DNA from: an uncultured Endomicrobiia bacterium
GTDB taxonomy: Bacteria > Elusimicrobiota > Endomicrobiia > DTEH01
Direction of reading: 5' to 3'
NCBI GenBank assembly: GCA_938074745.1
Contig: CALJEJ010000067.1
Span: 1-56,535, forward strand
Length of the DNA stretch: 56,535 nt
Under the pieces are notes generated by a model. It searched no databases. It saw nothing but the letters and a program-made list of their open reading frames with translations, and had not been told where the DNA came from. Positions 3,036 to 56,535 of this stretch are shown here, one piece after another; the first letter of the stretch is position 1, and every line of letters starts with the position of its first letter. Made by a program: the position numbers and the translations under genes.

Positions 3036-3826
3036 AAAAGTTAGGAATAATAGGTTGTGGTAATGTTGCTACTGAAATATTAAAATCTAATTTATCTAAT
3101 GTAGGCAAAGTATATGTATATGACATAGACGAAGAGAAGTCTTACCTTTTGGCTGAACATTTTGTTAATCTTCCTATTCATATCTGTAGAACAATTCAAC
3201 AAGTGATTAAAAATTCAGATATAATAATAGAATCTGCGAGTGTTTCTGCTGTATCAGAAATATTACAACAAATAAAAAAATTTCCACAAAAACATCTTTT
3301 AATTCTTTCAGTAGGCGGGTTAATAAAAAATTTCAAATTATATAAAAAACTTATTTCAAATGGATACAAAATACATATTCCTTCAGGCGCAATTGCAGGT
3401 TGTGATGCGTTATTAGCTGCAAAAGTTGATAAAATTCGTCATATACATTTAAAAACTACAAAACCTACTAAAACTTTATTATCAGCACCATATTTTCTAA
3501 CTCATAAAAATATTTATTCTAAAGTATTAAAAAACGACACAGTGACTGTATTTAAAGGCGATGTTTATGATGCTGTAAAATATTTCCCACAAAATATTAA
3601 TGTTGCTGCTACGTTAGCAGTTTTATGTGGAGATTTTAAGAAAGTCAGTGTAGAAATTGTCGCTTCAAAACATATTACAAGAAATGTCCATGAAGTAACA
3701 ATTTATTCCTCAGCAGGAGAAATTTATACTCGGACTGAAAATATACCTTCTCCCAATAATCCTAAAACAAGTTTTTTAGCCGTCTTGTCTACAATTTCTG
3801 TTTTAAACTCAATTCTGAGAGAATAA
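3032..3826 (+). CDS. nadX: L-aspartate dehydrogenase (NAD biosynthesis)
   Basis: GIIGCGNV Rossmann, IPSGAIAGCD, FPQNINVA, RNVHE, NIPSPNNPKTSFLA motifs. Confidence 0.88.
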   Translation: MKKLGIIGCGNVATEILKSNLSNVGKVYVYDIDEEKSYLLAEHFVNLPIHICRTIQQVIKNSDIIIESASVSAVSEILQQIKKFPQKHLLILSVGGLIKNFKLYKKLISNGYKIHIPSGAIAGCDALLAAKVDKIRHIHLKTTKPTKTLLSAPYFLTHKNIYSKVLKNDTVTVFKGDVYDAVKYFPQNINVAATLAVLCGDFKKVSVEIVASKHITRNVHEVTIYSSAGEIYTRTENIPSPNNPKTSFLAVLSTISVLNSILRE

Positions 3827-5050: not shown

Positions 5051-5107
5051 AAACTTTTCAGCTAATACTTCTGTAAACCCAAGATTTAACTTTATTTTCT
5101 TTAGCAA

Positions 5108-5179
5108 CTCCGGGACTACGACTCGAACGTAGACTCCATGGTCCAGAGCCATGTGTCCTACCAATTAGACGATCCCGGA
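5108..5179 (-). tRNA. trnQ: tRNA-Gln (anticodon CTG), U1-A72; CCA not encoded
   Basis: Reverse complement TCCGGGATCGTCTAATTGGTAGGACACATGGCTCTGGACCATGGAGTCTACGTTCGAGTCGTAGTCCCGGAG folds as a cloverleaf with loop CTCTGGA. Confidence 0.96.
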
Positions 5180-5222
5180 AGAATTGCTTTCTTATATTAA
5201 ATTCTTCAGTAGAATTTCAATA

Positions 5223-5501
5223 TTAGTTATGTTGTTTCTTTACTTCATCAGCAAAGTTTAGTTCAAGGTCTGAAATTATAGTAACTATAAATCTTTCTTC
5301 TTCTGGTGTAAGATTACCTTGAGTTTTTTCTTTTAACACACGTAACATTTCAATGGTCACTTGAGCATTTTCTAAATCTTGTTCTATTTTGTTAGTTATC
5401 GGATTTGGCACTTTACCAAGTTGCATCCAACAAGTAGATGCTAACGACGAAATTAATGCTAAAAACAGTTCATTTTTATTTATTTTGTTTTCTTTTTCCA
5501 T
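5223..5501 (-). CDS. DUF1844 domain protein
   Basis: LISSLASTCWMQLG..PNP...DLENAQVTIEMLRVLKEKTQGNLTPEE matches my recollection of the DUF1844 pattern; GGAG upstream. Confidence 0.8.
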   Translation of the reverse strand: MEKENKINKNELFLALISSLASTCWMQLGKVPNPITNKIEQDLENAQVTIEMLRVLKEKTQGNLTPEEERFIVTIISDLELNFADEVKKQHN

Positions 5502-5520: not shown

Positions 5521-7026
5521 TTATTTTATGTTCAAAAAAAATTTTTTTATCACTAAATTAATTCTATTGATAACCCTTTCTTTTCCTAAAAAGAAAAGTA
5601 AATCAAAAAGTCCAGGACCTTCACTACGGCCTGATACCGCTGCACGTAAAAGCTGAAACACTTCTGTAGTTTTATACCCTCGATTAGAACAAAAGTTACG
5701 TAGTTGATGTTCTAAAGTAGTTTTATCAAATTGAGTGATAGTTTGTAACATATCACGGACTTCTATTAAAATTTGTTTTTGAGTATCTAAATAGAAATAT
5801 TTTTTTACCACATTCTCTTTATATTCTATTTCAGTATCAGGTTTAAGGAAAAATTCTATCATATAAGGAATGTCTTTTAATAATTTAATTTTTTGTTGTT
5901 CTAATTGTATAAGTTTAACTATGTATTCCTTAATTTCAGAATTATTGATGTCAATTTTTATTCCATAACTAACAAAAAATGGAATTGAATATTCCATAAG
6001 TTTATAAGGATCTGTTTTACGAATATATTCACTGTTCATCCATAAAAGTTTTTGTTTATCAAATATTGCGGGTGATTTGGAACATCTGGATAAAGAAAAT
6101 TTGTCTATTAATTCCTGTTTTGTAAAAATTTGTTGAGAATCTTCTGTTGACCATCCGAGTAACGCAACATAATTTAATAATGCTTCTGGCAAATATCCTT
6201 CTTTTTTGTATTCTTCTACTGCAACATCGCCAGAACGTTTGCTTAATTTACTTCTATCTGGATTAAGTAACAGTGGTAGATGGGCGAACTGTGGTGGTTG
6301 CCAATCTAAATATTTGTAAATTAAGATATGTTTAGGTGTTGAAGATAACCATTCTTCACCACGGATTACATGGGTGATTTCCATCAAATGGTCATCTACA
6401 ACGTTTGCTAAATGGTAAGTAGGGTAACCATCTGATTTTAATAATACTTGGTCGTCAATAAGAGACCCGTCAAATTCTACTTTATCACGGATAATGTCAG
6501 TAAAAACAATTTTTTCATCAGGGACTTTTAATCTTATGGTATAAGGTTCTATGGCAGCTCTACGATTAGATTCTGTTTCAGACAAGTTTCTACACAGTCG
6601 GTCATATTTAGGTGGTTGTTTGTTTAACAATTGTAATTTTCTTACTTCTTCAAGACGTTGTGGAGAACAAAAACATCTGTAAGCGAACCCTTTTTTAAGA
6701 AGTTCCATCGCATATCTTTTATATATTTCAATTCGTTGGGATTGAATATAAGGTCCATAATCACCTTTTTGATAAATTTTACCGTGAGTATCAAGGTAAG
6801 GACCTTCATCATAATCAAGCCCACTCCAATTAAGAATTGATATAAGATTTTCAGTTGCACCTTCAACATAACGTGTTCTATCAGTGTCTTCTATCCTTAA
6901 TATAAACTTACCATTGTTATTACGTGCGAAAAGATAATTAAACAGTGCTGTACGTAATCCGCCAATGTGTAAAAATCCTGTGGGTGAAGGTGCAAAACGT
7001 ACACGAACAACAGTTGGTTTGTTCAT
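5521..7026 (-). CDS. gltX: Glutamate--tRNA ligase
   Basis: RFAPSPTGFLHIGG, RIEDTD, HVIRGEEW, KLSKR, SGRSEGPGLF. Confidence 0.98.
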   Translation of the reverse strand: MNKPTVVRVRFAPSPTGFLHIGGLRTALFNYLFARNNNGKFILRIEDTDRTRYVEGATENLISILNWSGLDYDEGPYLDTHGKIYQKGDYGPYIQSQRIEIYKRYAMELLKKGFAYRCFCSPQRLEEVRKLQLLNKQPPKYDRLCRNLSETESNRRAAIEPYTIRLKVPDEKIVFTDIIRDKVEFDGSLIDDQVLLKSDGYPTYHLANVVDDHLMEITHVIRGEEWLSSTPKHILIYKYLDWQPPQFAHLPLLLNPDRSKLSKRSGDVAVEEYKKEGYLPEALLNYVALLGWSTEDSQQIFTKQELIDKFSLSRCSKSPAIFDKQKLLWMNSEYIRKTDPYKLMEYSIPFFVSYGIKIDINNSEIKEYIVKLIQLEQQKIKLLKDIPYMIEFFLKPDTEIEYKENVVKKYFYLDTQKQILIEVRDMLQTITQFDKTTLEHQLRNFCSNRGYKTTEVFQLLRAAVSGRSEGPGLFDLLFFLGKERVINRINLVIKKFFLNIK

Positions 7027-51121: not shown

Positions 51122-52216
51122 ATGAGATTAGCGGATATTTTTAAAAAAATTCAACAGGAAAGTTTAGAAAAATCGCATGAAGAAAAAGTTATAGAAGATA
51201 AAACTCAACAAACAAAAACACCCACACCTTCTATAGTAGAAATAGAACGGAAAAAAGAACAAGAAGTTTTACTTATAGAAAAAATTTATGCTGACGCAAT
51301 TTCATACACAAGAACCCTATTTTCTTCATTAGCCCACAAAAAAAACAATATTTCTTTAGAAAACATTTTTGAGGTAATTAAAGGGATAACAACTACAATC
51401 CAACAGTATCCTGATAAGTTATTACTTTATTGTACTTATTCTACACCTGATTCATATATTTATGCTCATAGTGTGAACGTTGCAATATTAACTTCATTAA
51501 TAGGACAAATAAAAAAATTCCCGCAAGAGGAATTGTTTCAACTTACTTTATGTGGTCTGTTACACGATATAGGTATGCTTCGTGTGTTAGATATTGTGAA
51601 CAAACCACAAAAACTTTCTTATGAAGAATACGAGAAGATAAAGAAACATCCGCTATGGACAAAAGAAGAACTTGTTTATTTATCTCTTCCTACAGAATTA
51701 AGAAATCTTTTGAGTGAAATTATTCCCCAGGCCCATGAACGGTTAGACGGTTCAGGTTATCCCTCAGGATTAACTTCACAAGAGATCCATCCTTGGGCAA
51801 AGATAATAAGTATTGCTGATATTTACGAAGCGATGTCTCACCCACGACCATACAGAGATAGGTTCTTAGCACATACTGCAGTAGTAGAACTTATTCGTAT
51901 GGCACAAGGGTTGGTTGATAGTGAAATAACTAAATTATTCGTAGATAGAATATCATTATTCCCTGTTGGCAGTTATGTTAAACTTAGCAGCGGAGATATT
52001 GCAAAAGTTATACAAACGAATATAGGGTTTCCGGTCAGACCTAAGGTTAAGGTTATATTAACTGCAGAAAAAACTGTCCCTGTAACTAATACAGAAATAA
52101 ATCTTGCTAAGGAAAGTAAGATTTATGTCTTAGAACCTCTGGACGAAACTAAACTTGTTGTCCCAGATAAGAGATTGTTACTTCAACTTAAGGCACAACG
52201 TTGGTGGGTAAAGTAA
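51122..52216 (+). CDS. HD-GYP domain protein (putative cyclic di-nucleotide phosphodiesterase)
   Basis: HSVNV, LHDIG, IKKHP, HERLDGSGYP, IADIYEAM..PRPYR, FPVGSYVKL. Confidence 0.92.
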   Translation: MRLADIFKKIQQESLEKSHEEKVIEDKTQQTKTPTPSIVEIERKKEQEVLLIEKIYADAISYTRTLFSSLAHKKNNISLENIFEVIKGITTTIQQYPDKLLLYCTYSTPDSYIYAHSVNVAILTSLIGQIKKFPQEELFQLTLCGLLHDIGMLRVLDIVNKPQKLSYEEYEKIKKHPLWTKEELVYLSLPTELRNLLSEIIPQAHERLDGSGYPSGLTSQEIHPWAKIISIADIYEAMSHPRPYRDRFLAHTAVVELIRMAQGLVDSEITKLFVDRISLFPVGSYVKLSSGDIAKVIQTNIGFPVRPKVKVILTAEKTVPVTNTEINLAKESKIYVLEPLDETKLVVPDKRLLLQLKAQRWWVK

Positions 52217-53070
52217 AAAAGTTGGCTAATATATATTTTTGTTGTATCCCGTCGGAAGTTTATATCAATATATACCCTCCATCACAAAAAATTTCTTTTT
52301 ACATCACGAAAAATTTTAATATATTTTGTATGAATGGGTCTAAAACAATCTCGGCTAAAATAGTTGTCAATCTAAAATTGTATGAAAAAAGTTGCAAGGA
52401 TAAATATCTTTTTGAAAACGGGCAAAAAAGTAAAGAATATACAGAATTTATTAGAGAAGATATTTATTTTAAATACAATTTTGTAAAAAATTTTGCTGAA
52501 GCCAAAATAAACAAAAATGTTTATTCAATTGATTCGGTGTTAAGAATACTATATAGTATTCTGTTGGCAAAAAATTCAGGAATATTATTTCACGCTGCAG
52601 GTATAACAATTGACAACTATGGTTATTTATTTGTTGGTCCTACAGGTTCAGGAAAGTCTACTACTATAAAATGGTTTAGAAAAAATTTTAAAAATTATAA
52701 AAGTTATATTGAACTAAGTGACGAACTTGTTCCTGTGAAGGTTAAAGGTGGGAAAATTTATACTTGGCAAAGTCTGTTTTGGGGTGAACTAAAGAATAAA
52801 ACCGTTTTTCAACAAGGGGATATTTCGATGTTCACATTAAAAAAAATATATTTTTTGTCAGGATTTAATGAAAAAACACAATTAGTTACACCAGTTGGTA
52901 TAAAAGAAACAGTTGAACTGTTATTAAAAAACTTATTTTGGGTGGTAAACTCGCAAATGTTTGCTAACGATATACTTAAAACAGTTACAAATATTGCAAT
53001 GACTGTTCCCGCGTTTAAATTATATCCACCACTTCACAATGATTATAATTTTGTCGAAATATTAAAATGA
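52201..53070 (+). CDS. HPr-kinase-like P-loop protein (RiPP-associated kinase type); start uncertain
   Basis: ILFHAAGI....GYLFVGPTGSGKSTT ... LSDE ... FWGE, the motif order of HprK-related kinases beside PqqD genes. Confidence 0.75.
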   Translation: MVGKVKKLANIYFCCIPSEVYINIYPPSQKISFYITKNFNIFCMNGSKTISAKIVVNLKLYEKSCKDKYLFENGQKSKEYTEFIREDIYFKYNFVKNFAEAKINKNVYSIDSVLRILYSILLAKNSGILFHAAGITIDNYGYLFVGPTGSGKSTTIKWFRKNFKNYKSYIELSDELVPVKVKGGKIYTWQSLFWGELKNKTVFQQGDISMFTLKKIYFLSGFNEKTQLVTPVGIKETVELLLKNLFWVVNSQMFANDILKTVTNIAMTVPAFKLYPPLHNDYNFVEILK

Positions 53071-53330
53071 AATATAAAATTAAACCTAACCTTGCATTTA
53101 GAAAAATTTCTGACGAATATTATATTGTAGATAGCCGAAATTCTATGTTACACAAACTTAACTCTGTAGGAAGTTTAATTTGGGAAGTTTTAAAAAAAGG
53201 TGCTACAGTAAAAGAAATTGTTGAGTTGGTGTATAAAGAATATGAAGTAGAGATAGAAACTTTGACTAAAGATGTAGAAGAGTTTATCACAGAACTAAAA
53301 AATAAATCTTTAATTGAAGAGTATGAATGA
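53067..53330 (+). CDS. PqqD-family RiPP recognition element (stand-alone RRE)
   Basis: 87 aa; LNSVGSLIWEVL...T..EIV.....EYEV......DV.EFI.EL....LI pattern. Confidence 0.92.
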   Translation: MKYKIKPNLAFRKISDEYYIVDSRNSMLHKLNSVGSLIWEVLKKGATVKEIVELVYKEYEVEIETLTKDVEEFITELKNKSLIEEYE

Positions 53331-54354
53331 AGGTTTTAAAAATTTATCAGACGAACTTTTCTGGCAAAGTTATAACAACAGAGTTCCGTTATATTCGTTG
53401 TTAGAAGTTACTTCAAGATGTAATTTTGATTGTATTCATTGTTATATTCCTCAAGAAGTCCGTAGAAAAAACGATGAACTTTCAACAAAAGAAATTATGT
53501 CCTGTTTAGAAGAAATTAAAACTTTAGGCGGGTTGTATACAGTTTTTACAGGTGGTGAACCGTTGTTAAGAGAAGATATTTTTACTCTTCTTGAGTTTGC
53601 TAAAAAATTAAATTTTGTAGTTATACTTTTTACTAACGGAAGTTTGATAAATAAAGAAACAGTTTCTAAAATAATTTCTTGTGGTGTAGATAAAGTTGAA
53701 ATAAGTTTATATGGTAATAAACATTTTCATGAAAAATTTGTCAGAAGGAAAGATGTGTTTTCACAAATTGTTTCTGGGATAAAAATGTTGAAACATAACA
53801 ATATAGATGTTTGTATAAAATCCGTGTTAACAAAATACAACTGGAACCAAAAAAAGTTTTTAGAAAATTTTGCTTATAGTTTAGGTGTGAGATACAAGTT
53901 TGACATAATCTGTACACCTAGAAATAACGGTGATATAATACCAACAACTTTTATCGTTGAAGAAAAAAAGTTGGTCAAACTACTAAAACAATACAATTTA
54001 ACACAGGTGGATATAAAAAAAGATTTTACCACACACATTTTGTGTTCTGCTGGGAGGAACATTGTCGCAGTTTCATCCCGTGGTGAAGTGTATCCTTGTA
54101 TTCAATTTCCATATTTTTTAGGGTCAATAAAGAAAGAAAAATTTGTAAAAATATGGCGAAGAAGTTTTTCTATAGTAGAAAAATTAGAGGAAACAAAACA
54201 ATATCAACAATGTTTAAATTGTGATATTCTTCAATACTGTCGTCGTTGTCCGGGAATAAGTTTTATACAAACACGGACATTATACGGTTGTGATACAGTT
54301 GCAAAACTGTTGGCTTGCGTAACAAGAAAAACTGTTGAAAAAACAGCCGTGTGA
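53323..54354 (+). CDS. Radical SAM/SPASM peptide maturase (ATG 53323 preferred over TTG 53314)
   Basis: CNFDCIHC, TGGEPLL, TNG; SPASM CSAG..VSSRGEVYPC and CLNCDILQYCRRCPG...YGC. Confidence 0.93.
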   Translation: MNEGFKNLSDELFWQSYNNRVPLYSLLEVTSRCNFDCIHCYIPQEVRRKNDELSTKEIMSCLEEIKTLGGLYTVFTGGEPLLREDIFTLLEFAKKLNFVVILFTNGSLINKETVSKIISCGVDKVEISLYGNKHFHEKFVRRKDVFSQIVSGIKMLKHNNIDVCIKSVLTKYNWNQKKFLENFAYSLGVRYKFDIICTPRNNGDIIPTTFIVEEKKLVKLLKQYNLTQVDIKKDFTTHILCSAGRNIVAVSSRGEVYPCIQFPYFLGSIKKEKFVKIWRRSFSIVEKLEETKQYQQCLNCDILQYCRRCPGISFIQTRTLYGCDTVAKLLACVTRKTVEKTAV

Positions 54355-54369
54355 TAAATATCACATTTG

Positions 54370-54399
54370 TTGACTGGTTAAGTCCAAATTTTGTATTTA
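54370..54399 (+). promoter_or_regulatory. Weak promoter candidate upstream of precursor peptide gene
   Basis: TTGACT (54370-54375), 18 nt, TATTTA (54394-54399), 7 nt before ATG 54407. Confidence 0.25.
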
Positions 54400-54406
54400 T
54401 TTTACT

Positions 54407-54562
54407 ATGAAAAAAGAAGATAAAAAAAAGAAAAAGAAGTACCAGAAACCTACAGTTGTTTCAGAAAAAATTTTTGAACAAGCAGCGCTTGCCTGCGGGA
54501 AATGTATTTCTGGCAATCCTGTGTTTAAAGGCGGCTGTGTATATGTCCCCAGGTTGTCATAA
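54407..54562 (+). CDS. Putative RiPP precursor peptide, 51 aa; not in ORF track
   Basis: Own translation MKKEDKKKKKKYQKPTVVSEKIFEQAALACGKCISGNPVFKGGCVYVPRLS*; fills the gap between rSAM and peptidase; YxxP leader motif; Cys-rich C-terminal part. Confidence 0.88.
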   Translation: MKKEDKKKKKKYQKPTVVSEKIFEQAALACGKCISGNPVFKGGCVYVPRLS

Positions 54563-54617
54563 TAACAGTTCTATTTTTTTATAGATTAAGTTTCTGGGGA
54601 TAGGTCATTTAGAGTTT

Positions 54618-54959
54618 ATGAAAATCGTGGTGGTAAAACTTGCCGGTGGTTGTATGCGACCATTGTTAAGAAATGGTCAAACAGTGTTAATTATTCCTCC
54701 ACGCAAAAAGTTGTATCTCGGCGATTTGGTTTTATACAAAATTGCTGAACAGTTGTTCCTTCACAGAGTGGTTAAACTTTCCTCACAAAGTGTAGTTGTT
54801 AATGACGACTGTGGTATTACTTCCTATATTACAGTTCCATTAAAAGATGTGATAGGTATATGTCCAACTATTTTATCCGGTTTTTTAGGATACATATATC
54901 ACATTTTTATAAGAACAATCTATACAACTTTCAGATGGATAAAAAAATTGTTGCTATAG
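54618..54959 (+). CDS. S24/S26-fold peptidase-like protein with Cys at the nucleophile position
   Basis: GGCMRPLL..GQTV, LGDLVLY, LHRVV, VIG matches the GxSMxP / GD / HR pattern with S->C. Confidence 0.78.
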   Translation: MKIVVVKLAGGCMRPLLRNGQTVLIIPPRKKLYLGDLVLYKIAEQLFLHRVVKLSSQSVVVNDDCGITSYITVPLKDVIGICPTILSGFLGYIYHIFIRTIYTTFRWIKKLLL

Positions 54960-54984: not shown

Positions 54985-55821
54985 ATGGAACAAAAATTGT
55001 CGTATCTATCCTATTGGGGACTTAAAGAATTACCGTTTTCTACAACACCTGATGTAAGATATTTTTATTTTTCAAAAGAACATGAAGAAGCGTTCGTCAG
55101 ACTTAAATTTGTGATAGAACACAAAAAACCTTTGTGTATGATAACAGGCGAGTATGGCAGTGGCAAGACACTTCTTTGCAATTTCCTTATCTCCAAACTT
55201 TCTTTGAACAATTACCAGTTTGTATATTTAGGCAACCCGTTTGTCCCTCAGGAAGAACTAGTACACAATTTAGTTTTGTTTTTAACCCGAGTAGGTGGGG
55301 GGGGTATAGAGAAACTTCCAACTAAATATACAGAGTTGGTGCAGTTGTTTGTTGAAATAGTAAATCGTAACTTCCAAATTGGTAAACATACAGTGATATT
55401 TTTTGACGAAGCACACCTTGTTGAAGATATAAAAGTTTTTGAACAACTCCGAGTTTTGTTAAACAGTGCAGGTCAAAATACGTCTTCTTTAAGTATAATT
55501 TTGTTAGGACAAACAGAGTTAAGAGAAAAGATTGCTTCTTTAGGACAGTTTAAGTCAAGAATTACATATCATTACCATATAAAAAATCTTGATAAAGAAG
55601 AGGTGGCAGAATATATAAAACACAGGTTACTTGTAGCAGGCCATCCTACGGGCGAGTTGTTTTGCAAGTTCGCAGTGGAAGAAATTTATAATCTAACTTT
55701 GGGTTTGCCAAGGACAATAAATAATATATGTGATGTAAGTTTAATGCTTGGTATGGCTAAAGGTGTGGAGAAAATTCATAAAGAAATAGTGGTGGAAGCG
55801 AAAGAAGAAGTGATGTTGTGA
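54985..55821 (+). CDS. ExeA/GspA/MshM-family AAA ATPase
   Basis: Y..YWGLKELPFSTTPD..Y.Y....H.EA, ITGEYGSGKTLL, FDEAH, LLGQTEL, T.GLPRTIN.ICD. Confidence 0.9.
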   Translation: MEQKLSYLSYWGLKELPFSTTPDVRYFYFSKEHEEAFVRLKFVIEHKKPLCMITGEYGSGKTLLCNFLISKLSLNNYQFVYLGNPFVPQEELVHNLVLFLTRVGGGGIEKLPTKYTELVQLFVEIVNRNFQIGKHTVIFFDEAHLVEDIKVFEQLRVLLNSAGQNTSSLSIILLGQTELREKIASLGQFKSRITYHYHIKNLDKEEVAEYIKHRLLVAGHPTGELFCKFAVEEIYNLTLGLPRTINNICDVSLMLGMAKGVEKIHKEIVVEAKEEVML

Positions 55822-55825
55822 AAAT

Positions 55826-55906
55826 ATAGTTTCAAAAGTTTCAGAAGTTTCAATAGTTTCAAAAGTTTCAGGAGTTTCAATAGTTTCAGAAGTTACAAAA
55901 GTTTCA
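55826..55906 (+). repeat. Tandem array of nine 9-bp units, consensus (A/G)(A/T/G)AGTTTCA, with loose 27-bp superperiod
   Basis: atagtttca aaagtttca gaagtttca atagtttca aaagtttca ggagtttca atagtttca gaagttaca aaagtttca, read directly. Confidence 0.97.
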
Positions 55907-55920
55907 AGGGGGAAAGGAAG

Positions 55921-56451
55921 GTGAAGATTGAGAAGTTTGAGGATATAATTGCTTGGCAAAAAACGAGAGAACTTGTTAAAGAAATTTATAGGATAACGAA
56001 GAATGAAGAATTTTCAAAAGATTATTCTTTAAAAGACCAGATACAACGTGCAAGTGTTTCTATTATGTCAAACATAGCAGAGGGGTATGAACGTGGGACG
56101 AAAGAAGAGTTGATACAATTTTTATACATTGCTCGTGGCTCGTGTGGTGAAGTAAGAAGCCAGTTATATATTGCTTATGACCTAAATTATATAAGTTTGC
56201 AAGAGTTTCAAAAGTTGCAAAAGTTAGCGATAGAGGTTTCAAGGTTAATTTATCATTTTATTGAATACTTAAAAGGAGCAAGGATTAGAGGACAGAAGTT
56301 TAGAAAACCTAAAGTGAAAAGTTTCAGAGAGGAAATAGAAGAATTATTAAAAACTTATACAACTTCTGAAACTCCTGAAACTATTGAAACTTCTGAAACT
56401 CCTGAAACTAATCAAATTAACGAGAACAATGACGGAACTAAGCAACTTTGA
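55921..56451 (+). CDS. Four-helix-bundle protein (Avd / 23S-IVS-protein-like) with repeat-derived C-terminal tail
   Basis: FEDIIAWQK, F.KDYSLKDQIQRASVSIMSNIAEGYER, F..IARGSCGEVRSQL; purine-rich SD AGGGGGAAAGGAAG before GTG. Confidence 0.93.
   Translation: MKIEKFEDIIAWQKTRELVKEIYRITKNEEFSKDYSLKDQIQRASVSIMSNIAEGYERGTKEELIQFLYIARGSCGEVRSQLYIAYDLNYISLQEFQKLQKLAIEVSRLIYHFIEYLKGARIRGQKFRKPKVKSFREEIEELLKTYTTSETPETIETSETPETNQINENNDGTKQL
56361..56411 (-). repeat. Inverted copy of the 9-bp array (five full units plus a partial) inside the four-helix-bundle ORF
   Basis: aacttc tgaaactcc tgaaactat tgaaacttc tgaaactcc tgaaactaa is the reverse complement of the NNAGTTTCA units; encodes TSETPETIETSETPET. 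Confidence 0.95.
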
Positions 56452-56455
56452 ATTG

Positions 56456-56524
56456 AAAGTTACAAAAGTTACAAAAGTTTCAAAAGTTTCAATAGTTACA
56501 ATAGTTTCAATAGTTTCAAAAGTT
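56456..56524 (+). repeat. Downstream direct array of seven 9-bp units plus a partial
   Basis: aaagttaca aaagttaca aaagtttca aaagtttca atagttaca atagtttca atagtttca aaagtt. Confidence 0.97.
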
Positions 56525-56535
56525 AGGGCACTGTT

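Follow-up and report, generated by a model that had tools for sequence, protein, structure and literature searches.

A four-helix-bundle gene between inverted nonamer arrays at an operon junction of Endomicrobiia: a possible mRNA counterpart of the 23S rRNA intervening sequence

What is a small gene bracketed by tandem repeats doing inside an operon? The question is posed by the end of a contig from a marine Endomicrobiia bacterium (CALJEJ010000067.1, assembly GCA_938074745.1), whose entire 56535 nt form the window analysed here and which stops 10 nt beyond the last of three repeat arrays. There a long-resident cassette, consisting of a gene for a four-helix-bundle (4HB) protein of family PF05635 with its own ribosome-binding site and two inverted arrays of the 9-mer AGTNNCARN, sits flush and co-directionally between the gene for an ExeA-like ATPase and that for a giant surface protein with immunoglobulin (Ig)-like domains. 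The 4HB genes (S23p, or intervening-sequence (IVS) protein, genes) are among the commonest uncharacterised small genes of bacteria, and short tandem arrays of heptamers to nonamers are a separate, long-standing puzzle; the locus ties the one to the other, and its single junction offers a time series in which the cassette is retained, decayed, lost or replaced. We propose, with a probability of about one half, that the cassette is IVS-like but set in mRNA, its arms pairing in the operon transcript as an operon-borne counterpart of the IVSs of 23S rRNA that carry an open reading frame (ORF). Such a cassette may explain how an insert can sit within an operon without breaking it.

The arrangement described in a first-pass annotation of the sequence (a forward array of nine units, a Shine-Dalgarno (SD) region, a 4HB ORF, an inverted array of five to six units, a stop codon, and a forward array of seven or more units) was borne out by the sequence and by Tandem Repeats Finder. 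All features lie on the + strand. The ATPase stop codon (55819-55821) is followed after 5 nt by the 5' arm (55826-55907), a forward array of nine AGTTTCARN units with a 27-nt super-period (55828-55907 in Tandem Repeats Finder, period 9, 8.9 copies, the super-period at 90% match); it is non-coding, since its V-S-K frame has no start codon, and it recurs in all six 4HB-bearing orthologous loci. Directly 3' of it lies the purine-rich SD region GGGGGAAAGGAAG (55908-55920), and then the 4HB gene (55921-56451; GTG start, 176 aa; profiles PF05635 and TIGR02436), within which is the 3' arm (56351-56419), an inverted array of about five to six units of the type TCTGAAACT (56361-56409 in Tandem Repeats Finder, period 9, 5.4 copies, opposite strand sense) translated as the tail TSETPETIETSETPET. 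The 3' arm ends 10 nt before an ATG at 56429, the probable 5' end of the giant-protein gene (56429-56535, open to the contig end), which overlaps the 4HB gene, stop codon included, by 23 nt; the third array (56456-56525, period 9), about 7.8 forward units of AGTTACAAA/AGTTTCAAT, is read as KVTKVSKVSIVTIVSIV in this downstream ORF. A lone forward unit inside the 4HB ORF, AGTTTCAGA in codons K-S-F-R, is present as annotated, at 56320-56328 and so two bases off the 56318-56326 first given. The two-unit pattern AGTTTCARNAGTTTCA, with at most one mismatch, occurs 18 times, always in 55828-56518, where shuffles lead one to expect 0.05, and no comparable array was found elsewhere in the 56.5-kb window. 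A search between the genes for promoters and terminators yielded none above shuffles; an Rfam scan gave sub-threshold chance matches only, with no rRNA match in 55500-56535.

The 3' arm is able to pair with either forward array, by repeat finding as by folding. Its complementarity to the 5' arm, originally put at about 45 of 50 nt, extends over 60 nt at 85% (I3) and 56 nt at 86% (I4), and that to the third array, also pointed out at the time, over 49 nt at 84%, with 66 nt between (I8). Folded as RNA, 55815-56535 has a minimum free energy (MFE) of -160.7 kcal/mol (z -3.5), and the MFE and centroid structures both pair the upstream array with the in-ORF array, leaving the 4HB cistron in the loop. 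The duplex of 5' and 3' arms is predicted at -69.8 kcal/mol (shuffles -21.6 +- 5.3), and that of the 3' arm with the third array at -46.4 (shuffles -14.7 +- 3.4). In the polycistronic transcript the 5' arm would thus pair with the 3' arm over about 60 bp (-70 kcal/mol), looping out the 4HB cistron and so that no more than about 20 nt would separate the ATPase stop from the giant-gene start; the insert would do little harm to the operon because its cistron is looped out. By analogy with rRNA IVSs, a duplex of about 60 bp would be a plausible substrate for RNase III. Ribosomes translating the 4HB gene would melt the 3' arm, since it lies inside the ORF, and the 3' arm could alternatively form a duplex with the third array (-46 kcal/mol) near the start of the giant gene.

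Are 4HB genes elsewhere bracketed in the same way? A metagenome scan with the window protein provided a family sample, made up of the 80 that matched best out of the first 600 pattern hits: 80 loci in unrelated contexts, at 44-67% identity, with 66 unique 4HB genes, and hence the neighbourhood of the window protein. Controls were 237 ORFs of at least 150 aa, 43 from the same loci and 194 others. Arrays of 5-12-nt units are present at most 120 nt upstream of 47 of the 66 4HB genes (71%) and of 10 of the 237 controls, and at the 3' end of 51 and 15 respectively; both arrays accompany 39 of the 4HB genes and one control. Upstream and 3' sequences are complementary, with a score of at least 15, in 40 of the 66 (61%), as against one control, a gene for a REP-associated tyrosine transposase (RAYT; REP, repetitive extragenic palindrome); with the 43 same-locus controls alone, the difference in complementary arms gives a Fisher p of 3e-12. 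The suggestion that homologues should carry arrays of their own is thereby upheld: related 4HB genes generally carry short-unit inverted arrays. The layout forward array-ORF-reverse array is found in 30 of 51 cassettes, while the direct downstream array is nearly restricted to the Endomicrobiia orthologues.

The position of these cassettes relative to their neighbours is equally regular. Upstream neighbours are co-directional in 50 of 53 cases and downstream neighbours in 54 of 59; the median distance from the upstream stop to the 5' arm is 6 nt, and that from the end of the 3' arm to the downstream start 9 nt (5 and 10 nt in the window); and with the arms paired, a junction of about 490 nt at the median would be reduced to about 21 nt. 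The units themselves vary by locus (AAGTTATA, AAGTCCC, CAGTCGG, AAAGTCTAT, AGTTCGA and others). Unit similarity grows with 4HB protein similarity (Mantel rho 0.50, 0/2000 permutations), a relationship that holds for pairs in different contexts, and on three contigs (L046, L065 and L104) two 4HB genes of the same contig have different units. The unit is therefore a property of the cassette rather than of its host or site.

Cassettes of this kind have a recognisable precedent. IVSs bearing the S23p ORF occur in the 23S rRNA of Coxiella burnetii, Leptospira, Brucella and Xanthomonas (Warrier et al. 2016, PMC4990558); that of Coxiella holds the ORF in a 28-bp stem, has tandem heptamers of strain-variable copy number upstream of it, and is cleaved by RNase III at the first repeat (PMC4990558). 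The likeness to these elements drawn in the first-pass annotation is apt (PMC4990558). As in the rRNA, a protein of the same family is encoded in the loop of a long terminal stem (here a predicted duplex of about 60 bp, -69.8 kcal/mol), short tandem repeats of variable copy number lie just upstream of the ORF, the element would depend on host transcription, and the stem is long enough for RNase III. Unlike the rRNA IVSs, the window cassette lies between protein-coding genes of an operon rather than in 23S helix 25 or 45; both its arms consist wholly of tandem 9-mers, the 3' arm being inside the ORF; and a third, direct array reaches into the next gene. Its 4HB gene is under purifying selection, whereas Coxiella S23p is decaying.

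The protein is an unambiguous member of the family, with 132 bits to PF05635 (cut-off 33.8) and 126.4 bits to TIGR02436 (cut-off 24). It comprises a bundle (aa 10-119), a basic linker (120-134), a fifth helix (135-148) and a disordered tail (150-176), the last being the translated 3' arm; the AlphaFold monomer model has a confidence (pLDDT) of 82, above 90 over aa 10-119 and below 50 in the tail. Foldseek places it closest to the pentameric XCC0516 (2GSC; TM-score 0.88-0.91, root-mean-square deviation 1.5 A; phmmer 1e-14) and BT_0352 (2RLD), then to Avd (4DWL, TM 0.87), and confirms the four-helix-bundle fold; the 2GSC and 2RLD entries each contain five chains. R43, S47, N51 and E54 of the motif GxxRxxxSxxxNxxE, conserved in the family (Zhang & Ye 2013, PMC3936711), are invariant or nearly so (alignment A2), and beyond the bundle lies a basic linker, RGQKF(K/R)KP, that is likewise conserved. 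Look-ups of the exact window 4HB and ATPase proteins returned no match. With dN/dS of 0.09-0.35 over the core at dS of about 1, the 4HB protein is under purifying selection.

How long has the cassette been in place? The nearest homologues are in Endomicrobiia and other Elusimicrobiota assemblies, five of which (L001-L005), independently assembled, carry the 4HB gene in a common slot: RiPP-like cluster (RiPP, a peptide made by ribosomes and modified post-translationally), ExeA-like ATPase, 4HB, giant Ig-domain protein. These assemblies, and a contig of the Logan collection with the same layout, exclude the possibility that the arrays are an assembly artefact. All five have the AGTNNCARN upstream array, in 6-13 copies, and L002-L005 a likewise purine-rich SD; the inverted tail arm is strong in L001-L003, degenerate in L005 and nearly gone from L004; and L001, L003 and L004 (about 22 units) have the downstream forward array, which in L002 is weak and in L005 missing. 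The third array encodes part of the giant protein's signal-peptide region in L001 and L002 and a separate 33-codon ORF in L003, so its conservation is at the nucleotide level, the coding context differing between loci. As a separate observation, 9-bp units make up the hydrophobic core of the giant protein's signal peptide at L006 5937-6010 (MVKKVAIVSIVTIILVVTEVFSA), L001 3619-3745 and L002 4255-4325; a signal sequence has, it appears, been recruited from repeat DNA.

Scanning species-representative genomes with the N-terminal domain of the giant protein yielded 32 loci, and tblastn detected the 4HB gene in L001-L005 only. Empty sites downstream of the ExeA-like gene, for which the first-pass annotation had advised looking, do exist: in L007 and L029 an intact ATPase gene is followed by the giant gene across junctions of 97 nt and about 50 nt that contain neither 4HB gene nor array. 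In L006, the closest relative (ATPase 95% identical), the slot is filled by an IS200/RAYT-like gene (Y1_Tnp 8e-11); one AGTTTCAAA unit is retained just after the ATPase stop, as is a 9-bp array encoding the signal peptide of the giant protein. Logan contigs from one marine metagenome study include both the 4HB allele and the L006-type allele: X1 is a 4HB allele more than 99% identical to the window, X3 has an ATPase gene about 97% identical and joins 55822 to 56468 through 813 other bases, and X4 runs from 55822 onward into L006-type sequence, so that a near-identical strain lacks the cassette. X1 also has 36 extra nt, or four units, in the 3' arm/tail array, with the frame kept.

The RAYT-like element of L006 (5150-5900) is itself bracketed by REP-like hairpins (TAGCCGAC...GTCGGCTA), its ORF split by internal short tandem repeats (GGTAATATC x4.4 and AGAGGG x3), and a similar element interrupts the ATPase gene at L008 5150-5860. 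Other contigs of the X1-X3 metagenomes carry 9-nt-unit arrays and continue into GATTGGACAAC...ACAACAAATACT (loose ends 55845/55885 and 56379/56409); since their depth is about that of the L006-type strain, these genomes probably hold further loci with the 9-nt unit.

The ATPase tree has two deep clades, each with 4HB-bearing members, every 4HB-free locus branches beside 4HB-bearing ones, and 4HB identities run parallel to ATPase identities. The simplest history of these sequences would be that of an old, vertically inherited and selected gene with three independent losses or replacements. The window copy is no recent mobile insert: its co-divergence with the ATPase and the purifying selection upon it mark an old resident. 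Recombination between the outer direct arrays could excise the cassette, but the empty and replaced alleles are no demonstration of this.

How well does pairing account for the arrays themselves? The energies of the 5' arm:3' arm and 3' arm:third array duplexes are -65 and -51 kcal/mol in L001, -82 and -21 in L002, -53 and -55 in L003, -24 and -21 in L004, and -20 and -17.5 in L005, values at background level for both duplexes in L004 and L005 and for the second in L002. Two mutually exclusive duplexes, as originally suggested, are thus predicted in the window (-69.8 and -46.4 kcal/mol), but a switch between them is not conserved, the long duplex being at background in two of the six loci and the 3' hairpin in three. 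Several observations count against an IVS-like role. L004 and L005 lack arm complementarity yet have kept or enlarged their forward arrays, so that the hairpin cannot be the sole keeper of the arrays. Arm mismatches have no bias towards G-U wobble (38 sense-compatible, 42 antisense-compatible, 81 transversions), and in the orthologue set arms pair only slightly better with their own partners than with those of other loci (-52 vs -45 kcal/mol). The sequence was found in no RNA run; cleavage of the stem would here remove the 4HB stop codon; and the family sample consists of the best matches to the window protein rather than of the whole family.

Both the survival of arrays after arm pairing has decayed and the lack of G-U bias among mismatches suggest homogenisation of the arms as DNA and a separate role for the forward array. 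The arms would probably be kept alike by slippage together with correction templated by the inverted repeat, not by selection on single RNA base pairs, and in the Endomicrobiia lineage the in-frame 9-nt unit has let them spread into the 4HB tail and the leader or signal peptide of the next gene. The most attractive own role for the forward array would be as a binding platform for the presumably pentameric protein, which would fit the co-variation of unit and protein.

Might binding then be the whole explanation? On this account an Avd-like 4HB pentamer binds its own tandem units on RNA or DNA and so autoregulates translation of its gene, perhaps that of the giant gene too, the complementarity of the arms being secondary; TRAP is an example of a ring protein that binds spaced repeats. 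Only the upstream array is shared by the full set of six 4HB-bearing orthologues, two of which have no hairpin; arrays stop directly at an SD or a start codon; units track protein phylogeny (rho 0.50, 0/2000) and differ between cassettes of one contig; and the protein has the fold of the homopentamers 2GSC and 2RLD and of the nucleic-acid-binding Avd, with a conserved basic linker, RGQKF(K/R)KP, past the bundle. The co-variation, though, is expected equally from plain joint inheritance or joint movement of gene and arms, and binding alone leaves unexplained both the inversion of the 3' array (30/51 cassettes) and the abutment of arms on neighbours; as the primary function of the arrays, we judge it unlikely. 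That gene and arms travel together is also what one expects if the arrays are terminal inverted repeats or cruciforms of a selfish DNA cassette moved by recombination, deletable through its outer direct arrays and with RNA pairing as a side effect. The same junction is indeed empty in L007 and L029 and RAYT-filled in L006 and a strain about 97% identical, L006 still having one unit behind the ATPase stop as well as an array within the gene that follows; arm mismatches lack wobble bias; and assemblies differ by four units. A profile scan, however, revealed no recombinase or transposase gene within the cassette or beside it; only losses, and no gains, are required here, because the window copy has co-diverged with its neighbour in both deep clades; and strong co-orientation with host operons points to dependence on transcription. 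We see little prospect of a purely DNA-level element being the answer.

The arrays might also have no function, being slippage-prone repeats kept going by turnover in a contingency region rich in repeats, with the complementarity of the tail an incidental result of low-complexity coding. The region does contain a variable poly-G tract, frame-neutral 9-nt units are tolerable in a disordered tail and a signal peptide, and in IMG/VR 107 viral contigs (L118-L224) have at least three AGTTTCARN units, about half of them inside long ORFs encoding xET or KFQ tripeptide repeats; none of the 107 has a 4HB gene, so the unit by itself is not diagnostic. Yet lineages that differ by a dS of about 1 have retained the arrays in the same position; each of the three relatives that have an intact ATPase gene but no 4HB gene has lost the upstream array, L006 keeping one upstream unit and the signal-peptide array and the two clean empty sites no array at all; family-wide enrichment is far above controls (Fisher p = 3e-12 against the 43 from the same loci); and the positions of the arms are tied to gene boundaries. 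Absence of function is in our view very improbable. Three narrower proposals were rejected. A phase-variable contingency repeat is at odds with a frame-neutral 9-nt unit, an in-frame +36-nt variant and an empty promoter scan. The outer arrays in the window are spaced 630 nt apart, or 70 x 9, but a lock in codon phase or 9-nt register fails in L001, L003 and L004, and that in the window is therefore due to chance. Templating of the arrays from a stretch of the 4HB ORF was considered because the stretch TTGCAAGAGTTTCAAAAGTTGCAAAAGTT (56197-56225), which encodes the conserved LQEFQKLQKL, matches the two-unit array consensus at 17/18 nt; this match is confined to the present orthologue group, and similarity of arrays to their own ORFs elsewhere is marginal (0.71 vs 0.68). 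The codons of the helix-4 motif EFQKLQKL there amount to about 2.5 array units, and the L003 version of the motif, QKCQK (AGTGTCAAA), agrees with the predominant array unit of L003; the unit may have arisen from the ORF, or gene conversion may have acted, at 56197-56225.

A broader reading would make 4HB pentamers and arms one two-part system, in which the protein recognises its own unit and maintains, copies or moves the cassette without a canonical transposase, colonising rRNA helices and cistron boundaries alike. Recognition of the own unit is suggested by the way units follow the phylogeny of the protein and vary among the cassettes of a single genome; the generalisation as a whole is a tentative one, and we rather doubt it. 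If true, ORF-bearing rRNA IVSs, many orphan heptamer, octamer and nonamer arrays of the STRR type (short tandemly repeated repetitive sequences) and multicopy 4HB genes would be one phenomenon.

Other systems resemble the cassette in part. Cyanobacterial STRR heptamers are dispersed short-unit tandem arrays. Comparable are the GGGAATC heptamers of Xanthomonas, with 70-75 convergent pairs (PMC4692102), and the TAACTGA repeats upstream of start codons in Beggiatoaceae (PMC4679880). Dispersed arrays share with the cassette units of 7-9 nt in spacers just upstream of starts, often as inverted pairs; they differ from it (PMC4692102 and PMC4679880 make no link to 4HB genes) in that the array pair of the cassette encloses a 4HB gene and its unit tracks the protein lineage. 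REP/RAYT systems (REPINs) are likewise composed of a small gene with flanking inverted repeats and of gene-less copies elsewhere, and such an element fills the L006 slot, but there the protein (RAYT) is a Y1 transposase and the repeats (REPs) are imperfect palindromes, whereas the 4HB protein has no known catalytic fold and its arms are tandem arrays. Avd, of diversity-generating retroelements (DGRs), is the pentameric, nucleic-acid-binding partner of a repeat-based system. The window protein shares its four-helix-bundle fold (TM 0.87 to Avd of Bordetella phage BPP-1; 4DWL, 8UB7), but is not itself a DGR Avd: it scores 21.5 bits to the Avd equivalog NF033474 (cut-off 80), no reverse transcriptase domain was found in the seven upstream neighbours scanned, the downstream neighbour being the giant gene, and the neighbourhood contains no template repeat/variable repeat (TR/VR) pair.

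4HB genes have been reported inside unrelated operons, cas operons among them (PMC3936711), and as similar to DGR Avd (PMC10053308). These reports, the IVSs and the orphan arrays with their inverted pairs were published separately; in the literature searched we found no paper that connects them, and no description of array-bracketed 4HB genes outside rRNA. New here are the filled, empty and replaced states of one junction, the long vertical residence under purifying selection, the abutment of arms on neighbouring genes, the co-variation of unit and protein, and the spread of arms into coding sequence as a translated tail and an array-derived signal peptide. For annotation the last point serves as a warning: repeat arms, once translated, make up both the acidic TxE tail of the 4HB protein and the giant protein's odd N-terminus.

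The neighbouring genes have features of their own. The ATPase (54985-55821, +; PF13401 5e-17) is an AAA_22 protein of the ExeA-like, XrtA/PEP-CTERM-associated type, its 157 bits to TIGR03015 being below the cut-off. Its gene, in an AT-rich genome, contains a poly-G tract, G8 at 55297-55304, present as G6-G9 in eight of nine orthologues and absent from L029; at this tract the gene is broken into two frames in L001, L003, L004, L005 and L007, and it resembles a conserved, homopolymer-based switch for phase variation, situated upstream of the gene for the giant surface protein. In the orthologous loci the downstream gene encodes 5629-9377 aa with Ig-like domains; that of L004 has an in-frame TAA at 6000-6002 with the frame unchanged beyond, which could reflect a pseudogene, a sequencing error or recoding. 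Upstream of the ATPase gene, at 52201-54959, the RiPP-like cluster, which we take to be of the SynChlorMet type, encodes an HprK-like/ScmC-type P-loop protein, PqqD, a radical SAM/SPASM protein, a 51-aa Cys-containing peptide and an S24/S26-like protein, and is syntenic in all relatives examined. In L014 (Candidatus Firestonebacteria), which has no 4HB gene, purine-rich 9-bp arrays at 3103-3741 (GAAGCAAAA x8.4, AAAGAAAGC x7.2 and AAAGCAAAG x5.8) bracket a small RiPP precursor gene of the homologous cluster, and in L023 (Ignavibacteria) roughly inverted, gene-less arrays of AGAGGTT (x6.9) and CTCTGTC (x9.7) lie at 5096-5304, right after the radical SAM/SPASM gene.

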